From: Bacillales bacterium UBA5348
Lineage (GTDB): Bacteria; Bacillota_I; Bacilli_A; RF39; UBA660
DNA: 64,000 bases
Direction: 5' to 3'
Assembly (NCBI GenBank): GCA_002411005.1
Contig: DHQC01000013.1
Span: forward strand, 68,586 to 132,585
Shown here: positions 4,550 to 50,175 of the stretch, one piece after another
Layout of the letters: every line of letters begins with the position of its first letter
Position numbering within the stretch: the first letter of the stretch is position 1
Notes under the pieces: generated by a model
Database searches by the model: none
Told to the model about the DNA's origin: nothing
The model's input: only the letters and a program-made list of their open reading frames with translations
Position numbers and translations under genes: made by a program

Positions 4550-4957
4550 ATGAAAATATTTATTATATGTAGCAAGGCATTCTATGATAGAATCCCCGAT
4601 ATTAAGCAAAAGCTAGAGGAAAACCATCACATGGTTTTTTTACCTAATTGTTATGACAATCCTGGTATGGAAGCTGAAATGCGTAATCTTGGTGCTGAAG
4701 AGCATTCGAAATTTAAAGCTAAAATGTTTAAACAAAGTGAAAAATTAACTAAAGATATGGACGCTGTGCTTGTTTTAAACTTTAATAAAAATGGTGTTGA
4801 TAATTATATAGGTGGAGCAACCTTTTTGGAAATGTATGATGCTTTCAGAATGAATAAAAAGATATATTTATATAATTCAATCCCTAAAGGAATGTTAGAA
4901 GATGAAATTATAGGTTTTAATCCCATATTGATTAATACTGATATTAATCAATTGTAA
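4550..4957 (+). CDS. small Rossmann-like protein, nucleoside 2-deoxyribosyltransferase-like (YtoQ-like) fold suspected
   Basis: 135 aa; MKIFIICS strand, DAVLVL strand, GGATFLEMYDAF resembles the D.GT.FE.G.A motif of the NDT family; no TM. Confidence 0.3.
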   Translation: MKIFIICSKAFYDRIPDIKQKLEENHHMVFLPNCYDNPGMEAEMRNLGAEEHSKFKAKMFKQSEKLTKDMDAVLVLNFNKNGVDNYIGGATFLEMYDAFRMNKKIYLYNSIPKGMLEDEIIGFNPILINTDINQL

Positions 4958-4961
4958 AAAT

Positions 4962-4992
4962 ATTTACATATAAACAATTGTGTGTTATAATC
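4962..4992 (+). promoter_or_regulatory. sigma-A type promoter for ssrA
   Basis: ttgtaa ... gttataat about 10 nt upstream of the tmRNA 5' end. Confidence 0.4.
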
Positions 4993-5002
4993 TTTCACAC
5001 AT

Positions 5003-5344
5003 GGGGCTGCTTGGTTTCGACGGGAACTATAAAGCTTAGATGGCAAGTCGTAGGCATGCGTTAAATCCATCAGTTTAATAACTGGAAATAATAAATTAGC
5101 ATTCGCTGCTTAATTAAGCATTAGCGAGCTCTTCTTATCGTTTTTCTCACGAAGGATATTAAGGGCACATTAAAGTGAGATATATCATTGTCTTGTTTGG
5201 GTGCAATGATGAAAATTACCAAACTAGTTAGTGATTGGTTGTTAATTTCTATAATTACTAATGAATTTAATAAATTAACTAAACTTGTAGAAGTCTCTGA
5301 AGTTATATTTTCGGACAGGGGTTCAATTCCCCTCAGCTCCACCA
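5003..5344 (+). ncRNA. ssrA: tmRNA (SsrA)
   Basis: 5' GGGGCTGCTTGGTTTCGACGGG and 3' GGACAGGGGTTCAATTCCCCTCAGCTCCACCA tRNA-like ends; internal tag reading frame ...GNNKLAFAA* (gga aat aat aaa tta gca ttc gct gct taa); immediately downstream of smpB. Confidence 0.9.
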
Positions 5345-43748: not shown

Positions 43749-44681
43749 ATGATTAGAAAAAAAGTTTTTAAAAATTTAGATGAACAAATCGAAATTTTAC
43801 AAAGCAAAGGCCTGACAATTAACGATATAGAAAAAACAAAAGAAATTCTTCTTCGAGAAAATTATTTTTTTATAAGTGGTTATCGTTACATTTTTATGAA
43901 ATCAGTGAAAAATAAGGTTTTCTTAGATGGAACAACATTTGAGGAATTATATGCTTTTTTTACGTTCGATCGCAGCTTACGAAACATATTTTTTAAACAT
44001 TTATTAGTCGTAGAGAATAATTTAAAATCAATTTTTAGTTATCAACTATCTAAACAATATGGTATAAGAGAAAAAGACTATTTAAAAGCTTCAAATTTTA
44101 CAAAAGATATAACGAAAGCAAGGCAGGTCGCTGATGTTCTTCACAAAATGAAGAGACAAGTCAGGGTTAATGGCTCACAGCATTCAGCAACAAGACATTA
44201 TATGATAAATTATGGATATATTCCACTATGGATATTAGTTAAAGTTTTATCTTTTGGTATAATCGGCGAACTATATTGTATTTTAAAACCCGAAGATCAA
44301 CAGGTAATAGCTGATTATTATGATTTAGATGTAGAAAGTTTTATGATATTTTTGCCATTGCTTTCTAATTGTAGAAATTTATGTGCACATGAAGATATTC
44401 TATTTGATCATCGCACCCAAAGATCAATCCTTGATAATGAATATCATTTAAAACTTAAAATACCAATGGAAAATGATGAATATATTTATGGGAAAAACGA
44501 TTTGTTTGCTTATATCCTTATTTTTAAATCAATGTTAAGAGAAGAGGAATTTAGACACTTAGTATATGAAGTAGATTATGAGATAGCTAGATTAGATGGT
44601 AAGGTATCAGTTATCCCTGTTGAGAAAATCTTAAACAGGATAGGATTTCCTAATAATTGGCGTGAAATTGTAGATTTGTAA
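43749..44681 (+). CDS. Abi_2 (AbiD/AbiF-like) abortive-infection family protein
   Basis: ~310 aa; LDEQIEILQSKGLTI, NYFFISGYRY, FDRSLRNIFFKHLLVVENNLKSIFSY match the Abi_2/Abi-alpha family N-terminal signature; AGGTGA RBS. Confidence 0.7.
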   Translation: MIRKKVFKNLDEQIEILQSKGLTINDIEKTKEILLRENYFFISGYRYIFMKSVKNKVFLDGTTFEELYAFFTFDRSLRNIFFKHLLVVENNLKSIFSYQLSKQYGIREKDYLKASNFTKDITKARQVADVLHKMKRQVRVNGSQHSATRHYMINYGYIPLWILVKVLSFGIIGELYCILKPEDQQVIADYYDLDVESFMIFLPLLSNCRNLCAHEDILFDHRTQRSILDNEYHLKLKIPMENDEYIYGKNDLFAYILIFKSMLREEEFRHLVYEVDYEIARLDGKVSVIPVEKILNRIGFPNNWREIVDL

Positions 44682-47475: not shown

Positions 47476-47549
47476 GCAGATGTGGTTCAATGGTAGAATG
47501 CCACCTTGCCAAGGTGGAGACGCGGGTCCGATTCCCGTCATTTGCTCCA
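47476..47549 (+). tRNA. tRNA-Gly (anticodon GCC)
   Basis: GCAGATGTGGTTCAATGGTAGAATGCCACCTTGCCAAGGTGGAGACGCGGGTCCGATTCCCGTCATTTGCTCCA; 7-bp acceptor stem, anticodon loop cTTGCCAa, encoded CCA. Confidence 0.85.
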
Positions 47550-47550
47550 A

Positions 47551-47590
47551 ACGAAAGCAAACCCTTATAAAATAAGGGTTTTTTATCTTG
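47551..47590 (+). terminator. rho-independent terminator after tRNA-Gly
   Basis: aaacccttataaaataagggtttttt. Confidence 0.7.
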
Positions 47591-47600
47591 AAATGTTGTT

Positions 47601-47620
47601 TAGGTACTAACTAGGTACTA
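47601..47620 (+). repeat. tandem 9-mer taggtacta-ac-taggtacta (left-end subterminal repeat)
   Basis: seen directly; the same dimer recurs at 49993-50012. Confidence 0.7.
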
Positions 47621-47895
47621 TGTTCATCTTATTTCACTATATTTTTTGGTTGTATTTAACTATTTTTAAAGCAAATGTATGTATTTTGCACCACCTCATA
47701 TAATATGATGATTTAAATTTTCAAACCCCCTATTTTGCACCGAATGATGAATAGTCCTTAGAATACTAGACTTTTTTATTTTGTATGTTATATTTATGCT
47801 AAAAATTTGTAAAATAATCTTTAATTGATAATAATAAGGGTAGTATAAAACTACTCTTTAATAAAAATAAGAATAGAATAAGGTAGGTGAATAGA

Positions 47896-48453
47896 ATGAC
47901 AAACATTTTTAAATTAATTTACAAGAGGCTGAAAAAAATGTATAATAGAAATACAAGTATGCGTGAGGTGATAGGTGTGTTTGATGTTAAAGAATTAGCT
48001 TGTTACATAAAAAAACAATATTTTGACTTTGCAAGCGAGGAAATATCTCCAATTAAATTACAAAAATCTCTATATTTTCTTTTTGCATATTGGGGTGGCT
48101 TTGTTCAAAAAGGTATAAATAACCCAGATTTTTCTGAAGAAAAGTTTTCTGAGAACGATAGGTATTTATATAATGCGAGAATAGAAGCTTGGATTTATGG
48201 ACCAGTTATTCCAGATGTATATCGAGATATCAACCTAGATAGCCATTGTAATGATAATTTGTTTGATACTCGAGATGATATAAAAAAATATGTAGATGAT
48301 TTTTTGAGAGATACGTTTGAAGTGAGTGACTTTAAATTAGTAGAATCTGCGCATAATGATGAGGCCTGGAAAAGCAAATTTTCTCTTTCTAATGAATTTC
48401 ACAATAGAGAAATTGATAAAGAGGAACTTATAAACGAGTATGCACTTAAGTAA
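47896..48453 (+). CDS. Panacea-domain (DUF4065) protein, putative PanA/SocA-like antitoxin
   Basis: FDVKELACYIKK...ISPIKLQKSLYFLFAYWGG...IEAWIYGPVIPDVYRD matches the Panacea domain core (KLQKLLY ... AW..GPV...VY); ATG at 47896 after AGGTAGGTG. Confidence 0.65.
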   Translation: MTNIFKLIYKRLKKMYNRNTSMREVIGVFDVKELACYIKKQYFDFASEEISPIKLQKSLYFLFAYWGGFVQKGINNPDFSEEKFSENDRYLYNARIEAWIYGPVIPDVYRDINLDSHCNDNLFDTRDDIKKYVDDFLRDTFEVSDFKLVESAHNDEAWKSKFSLSNEFHNREIDKEELINEYALK

Positions 48454-48979
48454 TAGTATTTATTCTCATCAAAATCGCACAAAATTCGGTGGTCCCATTC
48501 AAGAAAGATTCGCTGAAAAAACAAAGAAGATAGACTTTACTTTCGCTTTGAGTTCGTTCAGATACCCAGAGGAATTTTTTACAAACTTTTCCAAAAGTGA
48601 TAATTTTGGTAGATTTCAGAAATTGAAGGGAATATATTTGGAAAACGAAGAGGGAAAGGACATATTAAAAAAATTTAGAAGACGCTATGTTGAAAATATT
48701 GATAAACATTATTTTGATAGAATAATAAGAATACTAAATTACCATAATAGATTTAATATCACAGAAGAGCAAGTAGTAAATATGTTAAAATGTAAATATA
48801 GGGAAGATCCTCGGATACAATTATTCATTATGAGCGATAATGGCGTTTCGAAAGTATATTTAGTTGATCTACACCACTTGGGATTTCCAGGAGATGCAGA
48901 TGGTCGTCGCTATGATATGAATGATATGTATAGAAAGTTTGAAAATGCAGAATACAATATTTCACATATATTAGATTAG
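48440..48979 (+). CDS. hypothetical protein overlapping the Panacea gene by 14 nt; candidate cognate toxin
   Basis: 179 aa, no TM, no recognisable domain; possible Rx4H (RILNYH) motif; translationally coupled arrangement. Confidence 0.4.
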   Translation: MHLSNSIYSHQNRTKFGGPIQERFAEKTKKIDFTFALSSFRYPEEFFTNFSKSDNFGRFQKLKGIYLENEEGKDILKKFRRRYVENIDKHYFDRIIRILNYHNRFNITEEQVVNMLKCKYREDPRIQLFIMSDNGVSKVYLVDLHHLGFPGDADGRRYDMNDMYRKFENAEYNISHILD

Positions 48980-49010
48980 ATATAATTAGTTAGCTAGTAT
49001 TTTTATTGTT

Positions 49011-49040
49011 GACAAGCATAAAATATAGAGTATAATAAGT
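49011..49040 (+). promoter_or_regulatory. near-consensus sigma-A promoter inside the islet
   Basis: ttgaca-17-tataat; a second extended -10 (tgtggtataat) ~49122-49134; AT-rich direct repeats (atgaaaatgta / atgtaaaaatgtg) lie between them. Confidence 0.5.
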
Positions 49041-49161
49041 GAAACCGCGTAACATATGAAAATGTACATAATTTTATATGTAAAAATGTGTAAAAAAGAG
49101 ATTTTTATTAATTTTTCGATTTTGTGGTATAATATAATTATAATAATAGGGAGGAATAACT

Positions 49162-49326
49162 ATGAAAGAAAAAAAGGACTTTGTTTCTTTACGCCTAGAA
49201 AAAGAAGAATTGGCTAAGAAACTACGTCCAAATATTAAAAAAGTAGATGAAAGTGATCCTCAACTTAGTATTATGCTAAAATCATTTGAGAAAGATGACT
49301 GCAAAGAATATAGAAAGCTTTTGTAG
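49162..49326 (+). CDS. small (54 aa) putative ribbon-helix-helix-like protein, candidate antitoxin
   Basis: MKEKKDFVSLRLEKEELAKKL...; GGGAGGAA RBS; not in the ORF track (under 60 aa); directly upstream of the MazF-like ORF. Confidence 0.4.
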   Translation: MKEKKDFVSLRLEKEELAKKLRPNIKKVDESDPQLSIMLKSFEKDDCKEYRKLL

Positions 49327-49336
49327 GAGGTTGTTT

Positions 49337-49810
49337 ATGCAAGTTGGACAAGTTATATTGATTAATAATATTGATAAAATAGGTGGCGCGCCACAAAAGT
49401 CTTCTATAAGACCTGCCATAATTAGGGAAATTTATGCACCAAATTTGATAGATGTTAGATTAGTATCAACTATCTATGTTAATGGCGATGTAAAAGCACA
49501 AAGTCTTGAAGAAGCCAGTGAAGCTATAAAAAATAATTTAAGAGGGCTTTTCCCACACTGCGAGCAATATATTATTATCACACCAGAGGAAAAAGGAATT
49601 TTGAACTTTAGTTATGTTTATGGAAATATGTATACCGACATAATAAACACCGATAAAACAGAAATTACTATTCTTAAAGATAGAAAAACAAATGTTCCTT
49701 TTGTAATAAGTAGCGATGTTAAGGCCAAGATAGAAGAAAAAGAAATAGAAGCAATGATAAAGGATATAATAAAGCAATATGATATAGAGTACAAAAAAAT
49801 AAACAGATAG
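49337..49810 (+). CDS. MazF/PemK-like (CcdB/MazF fold) protein with an internal insertion, candidate endoribonuclease toxin
   Basis: MQVGQVILINNIDKIGGAPQKSSIRPAIIREIY...IDVRLVST aligns with MazF's [29 protein letters not shown]...AIVAAIT. The C-terminus SSDVKAKIEEKEIEAMI aligns with MazF's DEMMDKVDEAL. AGGAGG RBS before the ATG at 49337. Confidence 0.5.
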   Translation: MQVGQVILINNIDKIGGAPQKSSIRPAIIREIYAPNLIDVRLVSTIYVNGDVKAQSLEEASEAIKNNLRGLFPHCEQYIIITPEEKGILNFSYVYGNMYTDIINTDKTEITILKDRKTNVPFVISSDVKAKIEEKEIEAMIKDIIKQYDIEYKKINR

Positions 49811-49835
49811 TGTCAACGAAGAATTTGATGAAAAC

Positions 49836-49866
49836 AAAAAAACAATGTTAGTATAGATTGTTTTTT
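49836..49866 (+). terminator. rho-independent terminator after the MazF-like gene
   Basis: aacaatgttagtatagattgtt + T8. Confidence 0.6.
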
Positions 49867-49922
49867 TTGATTTATAGGAATATCTCAATTATACCTCGAA
49901 CAATACATTAGGAGGTGGAATC

Positions 49923-49979
49923 ATGTTTGAATTAATTAGTGATGCAGAGTTGATGATATATATGTTAGAACTAGAATAA
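49923..49979 (+). other. 18-codon mini-ORF (MFELISDAELMIYMLELE) with a strong RBS, followed by a perfect 9-bp palindrome
   Basis: AGGAGGTGG 5 nt before the ATG; gaactagaa-taat-ttctagttc hairpin (49964-49985) overlaps the stop codon. Confidence 0.3.
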
Positions 49980-49992
49980 TTTCTAGTTCTTT

Positions 49993-50012
49993 TAGGTACT
50001 ATTTAGGTACTA
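49993..50012 (+). repeat. tandem 9-mer taggtacta-tt-taggtacta (right-end subterminal repeat)
   Basis: copy of the motif at 47601-47620, same orientation. Confidence 0.7.
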
Positions 50013-50116
50013 AAAAACAAGATTGATGCGTGTTGGTAAATTATAACGAGTAAGCAAACCTTTTAAAATCAACGTGTTAATGGTGGATAGTAGTGCGAAA
50101 TGATGTATCTTTAAAA

Positions 50117-50175
50117 TCCCGTCATTTGCTCCAAATGAAAGTAAGCCCTTATAAAATAAGGCTTTTTTATATTTG
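50117..50175 (+). repeat. direct repeat of the tRNA-Gly 3' end + terminator (attR-like)
   Basis: tcccgtcatttgctccaaatgaaagtaagcccttataaaataaggcttttttat versus tcccgtcatttgctccaaacgaaagcaaacccttataaaataagggttttttat at 47533. Confidence 0.75.

Follow-up and report, generated by a model that had tools for sequence, protein, structure and literature searches.

The 64,000-nucleotide (nt) stretch of DNA from Bacillales bacterium UBA5348 considered here (the window; contig DHQC01000013.1) carries two short co-oriented genes that encode proteins of 54 and 157 amino acids (aa). Neither protein matches Pfam, NCBIfam, PHROGs, PADLOC or the PDB sequence set. With a probability that we put at about 0.58, the pair is a type II toxin-antitoxin (TA)-like cassette in which the toxin is a sequence-orphan protein of CcdB/MazF fold and the partner belongs to a new family of small basic antitoxins. 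It is best explained as a bicistronic module that prophages and small integrated islets carry as cargo among low-GC gut Bacilli. The genes and the signals that surround them, including their ribosome-binding sites (RBS), are as follows.

49009..49036, + strand: distal σ70 consensus promoter, TTGACA-16 nt-TATAAT, matching 12 of 12 consensus positions
49123..49148, + strand: conserved proximal block TGTGGTATAATATAATTATAATAATA, a candidate second promoter or operator that recurs in homologous loci
49149..49154, + strand: RBS of the small gene, GGGAGG, 7 nt before the ATG (read from the sequence)
49162..49326, + strand: small gene, an open reading frame (ORF) for a 54-aa basic protein with a conserved D-P-Q-L motif, putative antitoxin
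49325..49330, + strand: RBS of the large gene, AGGAGG, overlapping the small-gene stop codon (read from the sequence)
49337..49810, + strand: large gene, 157-aa protein, putative toxin of predicted CcdB/MazF (Kid/PemK) fold
49836..49867, + strand: probable intrinsic terminator, an AT-rich hairpin followed by a T-run (strand folding gives an 11-bp stem and then Us; a consensus scan did not call the hairpin)

Both genes are real. They lie 10 nt apart on the same strand (the original prediction had placed the large gene 7 nt downstream of the small one), with no terminator between them, and the overlap of the second RBS with the first stop codon is consistent with co-transcription and possibly with coupled translation. 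The AT-rich hairpin downstream is a probable, if weakly attested, end of the two-gene operon. An alternative TTG start would extend the large ORF to 174 aa; homologues do not use it, and all of them start M-x-(V/I)-G-Q. The small gene had been described as an unannotated ORF with a strong RBS: ORF and RBS are there as described, but public gene callers already call the gene.

That the two genes belong together, as originally proposed, is borne out by their relatives. In 26 of the 27 loci with enough upstream sequence, the large gene is preceded on the same strand, at a distance of 4-26 nt, by a small ORF of 52-65 aa. The ratio of nonsynonymous to synonymous substitution (dN/dS) between loci is 0.12-0.3; the small ORF is thus under purifying selection and encodes a protein. 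Synteny is conserved: like the genes of a type II module, the two form a co-oriented, tightly spaced pair in at least seven neighbourhoods, and the division of the large proteins into two subfamilies recurs in the small ones.

The small protein and the promoter region

Two motifs are common to the small-protein family: D-(P/S)-Q-L or I-P-Q-Y, and an aromatic-Lys motif at the C-terminus. When the family profile was compared with the PDB, a weak resemblance to the FF domain, an all-helical, three-helix fold, was returned at an E-value (E) of 0.08.

The distal promoter agrees with what had first been read from this DNA, a full consensus match, except that its spacer is 16 and not 17 nt. Its -35 element, TTGAC, is invariant in 10 aligned homologous loci of both subfamilies, ~100-150 nt upstream of the small gene. 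The proximal block contains an extended -10 sequence, TGgTATAAT, at 49125-49133, and its general form, T(A/G)TG(T/G)TATA(A/G)T-nTAATTG-TAATA, stands directly before the RBS in both subfamilies, preserved between them though the proteins are only about 33% identical. In loci L003, L007, L010, L016, L024 and L025 it lies 25-45 nt upstream of the small ORF, and three of these (L010, L016 and L025) have it as the 3' arm of an inverted repeat (CAGTTGCACT ... AGTGTAATTG). The block may be an extended -10 promoter combined with an operator.

Direct-repeat operators had also been proposed for this region. A repeat search gave AT-rich inverted repeats only and found tandem repeats absent from 48994-49336; what survives of the proposal is an imperfect ATATG..AAAATGT duplication at ~49054 and 49076, which is weak evidence, since the DNA is 30% GC. 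The leader RNA has no Rfam match, its fold z-scores are mostly insignificant and no consensus structure emerges across loci; an RNA element in the long leader was rejected on these grounds.

Family and predicted fold of the large protein

A word-indexed search with the 157-aa protein returned 106 relatives, 54-100% identical to it and nearly all 155-170 aa long, without any Pfam domain and with 'hypothetical protein [Bacilli bacterium]' as their sole name. When 1.84 billion cluster representatives were searched exhaustively with a HMMER profile, only 14 matched, several of them fragments; this brought to light a second subfamily that shares about 32% identity with the first. In all, the family comprises about 135 clusters at 90% identity and 14 at 50%. 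The gene is carried by 11 of 185,579 species genomes, all of them uncultured gut metagenome-assembled genomes (MAGs), mostly labelled Bacilli. An alignment of 40 sequences that combines both subfamilies (A3) leaves G4, Q5, I7, G17, R25, R30, R41, S44, T45, I46, Y47, A60, Q77, P83, N90, S92 and G96 invariant; the C-terminus is long and variable. Isoelectric points (pI) range from 5.2 to 9.7, neutral to acidic in many members.

The fold was predicted with AlphaFold2 (AF2) run template-free, with input alignments confined to the protein's own family and containing no MazF sequence. Subfamily 1 alone gave a poor model, with a mean predicted local distance difference test score (pLDDT) of 58.8; with both subfamilies the pLDDT was 72.1 and the predicted template-modelling (TM) score 0.64. 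In 10-residue blocks, most of the N-terminal part and residues 101-150 score 75-93. Both runs produced the same elements: β-strands at 5-9, 25-34, 37-42/45-47, 78-81, 91-95, 100-104 and 110-112, and helices at 57-68 and 126-147. The predicted order β1-β2-β3-[helix]-β4-β5-β6-long C-terminal helix agrees with MazF topology.

Foldseek comparison of the model with the PDB gave PemK/MazF structures in all of the top 10 places (probability 0.89-1.0, target-normalised TM score 0.58-0.66), and in BFVD both of the top two matches were named 'PemK-like protein'. MazF/Kid/PemK structures are thus the best match by two independent methods; known structures of this kind include those of B. subtilis EndoA/MazF (4MDX, 4ME7), plasmid R1 Kid (1M1F), S. 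aureus MazF (4MZM) and PemK (7EWI). The large protein's fold is predicted to be MazF-like, and at the level of a moderate-confidence model the CcdB/MazF barrel, an SH3-like β-barrel with a C-terminal helix as in the superfamily, is supported. The MazF-like fold was suggested from the outset, with the absence of such a barrel named as what would refute it; the AF2 model contains one.

Profile comparison adds a fainter signal. For this purpose, five MazF/Kid sequences were aligned: EndoA, Kid, and stretches of 7bye, the D. radiodurans protein and E. coli MazF. PDB alignments confirmed or supplied them, for E. coli MazF over residues 9-96 and thus without its two ends, and the EndoA sequence is identical to 4ME7_A. 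A protein search with EndoA had given only homologues of at least 94% identity, too alike for a diverse MazF alignment. In hhalign the full family profile has a single local match to this alignment, residues 2-29 with EndoA 4-29 (P 0.015, probability 3%); the N-terminal 52 columns match over residues 1-38 with EndoA 3-38 (P 0.0047, probability 7%). The register pairs G4 with G6, G17 with G18, Q20 with Q21, R25 with R25 and P26 with P26, and it equals the one proposed earlier.

Three other resemblances were considered and set aside. A DarT/ADP-ribosyltransferase match, of residues 27-108 to 7OMU (T. africanus DarTG), is not significant (E 1.1 with the single sequence, 0.069 with the profile) and is absent from the fold searches. 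The weak resemblance covers residues 167-242 of 7OMU, including an R-x-(I/V)-S-x-I-Y-V motif, and appears to cross two domains of the target. A Pfam match to the thioredoxin-like TXNDC16 (E 0.0012, 19 bits against a cut-off of 27) occurs in only one of 40 members and is spurious, and a match of the C-terminal helix to a CopM helix (E 0.01) reflects compositional similarity between helices.

The register and the model together place three features of the protein against the anatomy of MazF.

49409..49411, + strand: codon of Arg25, candidate equivalent of the catalytic Arg25 of B. subtilis MazF; invariant in 40 sequences, aligned by hhalign with EndoA Arg25
49466..49471, + strand: codons of Ser44-Thr45, candidate equivalent of MazF Thr48; invariant in A3, at the end of predicted strand β3
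49478..49564, + strand: residues 48-76, a segment containing helix 57-68, without MazF counterpart and at the position of the β3-β4 loop (A3, AF2)

In MazF, Arg25 serves as general acid/base, the transition state is stabilised by Thr48, which closes β3 (Ser or Lys replaces it in some MazFs), and the β1-β2 and β3-β4 loops bind both RNA and antitoxin (PMC7354611). Arg25 of the large protein is, by its alignment, a candidate counterpart of the catalytic Arg, and the order of secondary-structure elements suggests that Ser44/Thr45 corresponds to Thr48 and that the segment 48-76, which begins right after this pair, sits at the β3-β4 loop. Every member of either subfamily has this segment, in which A60 is invariant and E59 and N66 nearly so; the helix is predicted in both AF2 runs with a pLDDT of only about 60. 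It had been described as an insert of ~35 aa that splits the fold. Relative to MazF it is indeed extra; within its own family it is no insertion at all.

Which partner would be the toxin is suggested by a locus in decay. In L029 (a Hadza gut Bacilli MAG, 4838-5252) the small gene is intact, while the RBS of the large gene and its codons 1 to ~84 are cleanly deleted. In this lineage Arg25, Ser44/Thr45 and the segment after them have been lost along with the rest of the N-terminal part. Similar 67-aa remnants of the large protein form separate clusters (P0109, P0113). A large gene that decays while its small neighbour persists is what one would expect if the large protein is the toxin.

Genomic contexts and neighbouring genes

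The pair occurs in at least seven genomic contexts. In the window it lies within a roughly 2.6-kb islet (47590-50173) bounded by a 57-nt repeat, of which a degenerate third copy is found at 47726-47782.

47533..47589, + strand: left copy of the 57-nt direct repeat (D1), made up of the 3' end of tRNA-Gly and its terminator
50117..50173, + strand: right copy of the 57-nt repeat, 91% identical, an att-like right boundary

The tRNA-Gly(GCC) gene occupies 47476-47549, and its last 17 nt together with the terminator constitute the repeat. There is no integrase gene inside the islet. The stretch resembles an islet without integrase, or a pair of remnants nested one in the other, that went in at tRNA-Gly; metagenomes scanned for the unoccupied tRNA-Gly site gave no exact matches, so that the 57-nt repeats are the sole argument for insertion. 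A second repeat, TTTAGGTACTAnnTAGGTACTA, is found at 47599 and 49991, and an 18-codon ORF, MFELISDAELMIYMLELE, with a strong RBS, AGGAGGTGG, lies at 49924-49980, between the cassette terminator and the TTTAGGTACTA repeat.

Elsewhere the pair, often found at prophage ends, follows holin/lysin genes there or adjoins a phage integrase; it adjoins a Mob_Pre/serine-recombinase element; it lies in a cluster of DUF1016/YhcG, KilA-N and SLFN_AlbA_2 genes; or it is inserted between core genes (sigF and spoVAC; divIC and tilS). One contig among the homologous loci (L022/L006, CAZBKY010000001.1), labelled 'uncultured Muribaculaceae bacterium', carries a sigF-like sigma factor, spoVAC/AD/AEB, SpoVS, Ku and LigD; it is probably mis-binned or mislabelled, because its sporulation genes are typical of Firmicutes.

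Directly upstream of the cassette, at 47887-48979, lie a Panacea/SocA-like gene of 171-188 aa and, overlapping it by 14 nt, a gene for a 179-aa protein. The former scores below cut-off in Pfam (E 9e-5) and far below it for NCBIfam SocA (E 2.5e-8), and matches phrog_1281 with an E of 9e-19; the latter has no match in Pfam, NCBIfam, PHROGs, PADLOC or PDB sequences. The two are a probable second TA pair, in which the 179-aa protein is the candidate for a new Panacea-associated toxin. An Abi_2 (abortive infection) gene stands about 3 kb upstream of the tRNA-Gly islet, at 43749-44681 (a position taken from the gene table of an identical contig, L001); the neighbourhood is thus rich in defence- and TA-type genes. 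Farther away, at 5003-5344, the window holds a tmRNA gene with the tag peptide GNNKLAFAA.

Weighing the toxin-antitoxin interpretation

The likenesses to MazF/PemK/Kid (PF02452) modules are of several kinds: the predicted fold and the order of its elements; the gene order, in which a strong promoter is followed by the small gene and, closely behind it, by that of the toxin; an invariant Arg that hhalign pairs with Arg25 and an invariant Ser-Thr pair that ends predicted strand β3, as candidate catalytic residues; and residence on mobile elements. The differences are as plain. There is no significant sequence similarity; the new protein has 157-174 aa as against about 110-120; it is often acidic or neutral; and its family has the ~29-residue helix-containing segment after the putative catalytic Thr. 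Our own comparison of predicted elements also places extra residues before a longer C-terminal helix and a tight turn where MazF has a short helix between β2 and β3. MazE/PemI/Kis antitoxins consist of an AbrB-type or ribbon-helix-helix (RHH)-type N-terminal DNA-binding domain and an acidic C-terminal toxin-binding tail. The new small protein resembles them in its location upstream of the toxin, its small size and its divergence in parallel with the toxin, and its conserved C-terminal aromatic residue (in E/D-Y-K-K or Y-Y-K-Y-L) could dock into the toxin; it differs in having only 52-65 aa, in its basic character and in lacking an RHH/AbrB match.

A good deal nevertheless weighs against the assignment, beginning with the primary structure. 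The 157-aa protein does not match PF02452 (PemK_toxin), whether whole or as its N-terminal 50 residues, nor does deletion of residues 51-76, most of the inserted segment, from four members bring out a PemK match. A single member of 40 matches PemK_toxin, at an E of 0.15 and among 24 equally weak unrelated families, which is noise. By the Pfam criterion, then, the large protein is not a member of the PemK family. Searches of PDB sequences with it returned no MazF, and the family profile, set against EndoA alone in hhalign, had no match either. Smith-Waterman comparison with EndoA stays at the level of shuffled sequences (z of 0.7 for the whole protein, 0.2 for the N-terminal 50 residues, -0.3 for the C-terminal part). 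A residue-for-residue alignment with EndoA, as originally claimed, thus shrinks to the faint N-terminal hhalign match in the same register, the probability of which is just 3-7%. The model is of moderate confidence, with a pLDDT of about 56-66 for residues 45-100, and its Foldseek E-values against the PDB are only 0.02-0.4.

The partner raises objections of its own. In the canonical pair MazE is acidic and MazF basic; here the small protein is basic (pI 9.1-9.9) and many large proteins are neutral or acidic. None of eight small proteins tested has an RHH or AbrB match at an E of up to 1, which leaves the original description of the small ORF as RHH-like unsupported, the FF-domain resemblance being the sole hint of a fold. 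One locus, L018 (1-726), has a subfamily-2 large gene, but unrelated sequence stands in place of the small gene, joined on within the final codons of the small ORF; the locus is a single 1.6-kb contig of 3x coverage. It may be a real antitoxin-less copy or an assembly chimera. Finally, no relatives of the large protein are found in annotated phages, PLSDB plasmids or IMG/VR.

If the TA interpretation is right, the 157-aa product would be a very divergent member of the CcdB/MazF superfamily, most likely a MazF/Kid-type metal-independent endoribonuclease whose Arg25, at the start of β2, and Ser44/Thr45, at the end of β3, occupy the positions of the catalytic Arg and Thr of MazF. Both toxicity and RNase chemistry of that kind are predicted for it. 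The ~29-residue helical segment that comes after Ser44/Thr45 would reshape both the choice of substrate and the surface on which the antitoxin docks, because the β3-β4 loop of MazF contacts RNA and antitoxin. The 54-aa basic protein would be the cognate neutraliser and probably also a DNA-binding autoregulator that acts on the conserved promoter block, and the module as a whole may serve in phage defence or in stabilising the elements that carry it.

The same mobile pair could also encode a MazF-fold protein that is not an RNase, one that binds a protein target (as CcdB binds gyrase) or is a phage-encoded regulator or exclusion factor, with the mini-protein as its nucleic-acid-binding partner. 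This is unlikely. CcdB itself (PF01845, 1VUB) is the poorer model, with a structural score below that of MazF/Kid and no profile match to the large protein, and the new family, long and variable at its C-terminus, carries the Arg and the Ser-Thr pair expected for MazF-type catalysis, which are not expected in CcdB. Quite unlikely, too, is a more thorough rebuilding of the MazF barrel, in which the 29-residue helical module takes the place of the RNA- and antitoxin-binding loop of an often acidic protein, and the basic partner of ~55 aa, possibly of three-helix FF-like fold and without kinship to known antitoxins, makes for a new mode of neutralisation or a new target. The acidic MazE tail is regarded as an RNA mimic, a part that a basic protein could not play in the same way. 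One example would be a prophage-borne defence effector that is freed when nucleic acid titrates the basic partner away.

The fold itself might be an artefact of a moderate-confidence model built on a shallow alignment, the N-terminal domain being some generic small β-barrel (SH3/Tudor/KOW-like) joined to an unrelated C-terminal part and the pair serving some other function. This is improbable. Generic barrels align over just 46-70 residues, against 88-103 for MazF/Kid chains, which are matched over nearly their full length, C-terminal helix included; two algorithms and two libraries point to the same superfamily; the N- and C-terminal parts that match are those with a pLDDT of 75-93 in most 10-residue blocks; and the independent hhalign profile match is in the right register. 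As to type III systems of the ToxN/AbiQ/CptN kind (4RMO), which have a role in phage defence, they too have a Kid/MazF-related fold, a similar size (155 aa) and elements added to the barrel, and the region upstream of the large gene would then be an RNA antitoxin. This is very improbable and largely refuted: the new family has no RNA repeats, there being no tandem repeat array upstream of the large gene, and its upstream partner is a protein. That region is a coding ORF with its own RBS and the dN/dS cited above, it runs up to the large gene with a 10-nt gap and no intervening terminator, and it has neither a conserved RNA structure nor an Rfam match.

Type II TA modules on prophages and islets are well known, and for that reason the value of the present one is incremental rather than conceptual; what is new is the family, its conserved insertion and its partner. 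If confirmed, it adds a sequence-orphan family to the CcdB/MazF superfamily. No current hidden Markov model library detects this family, and it is consequently missed by the pipelines that annotate TA and defence systems. With an insert after the putative catalytic Thr and a basic partner that is neither RHH nor AbrB, it would constitute a natural experiment on how far the MazF scaffold tolerates the remodelling of its RNA- and antitoxin-binding loop.

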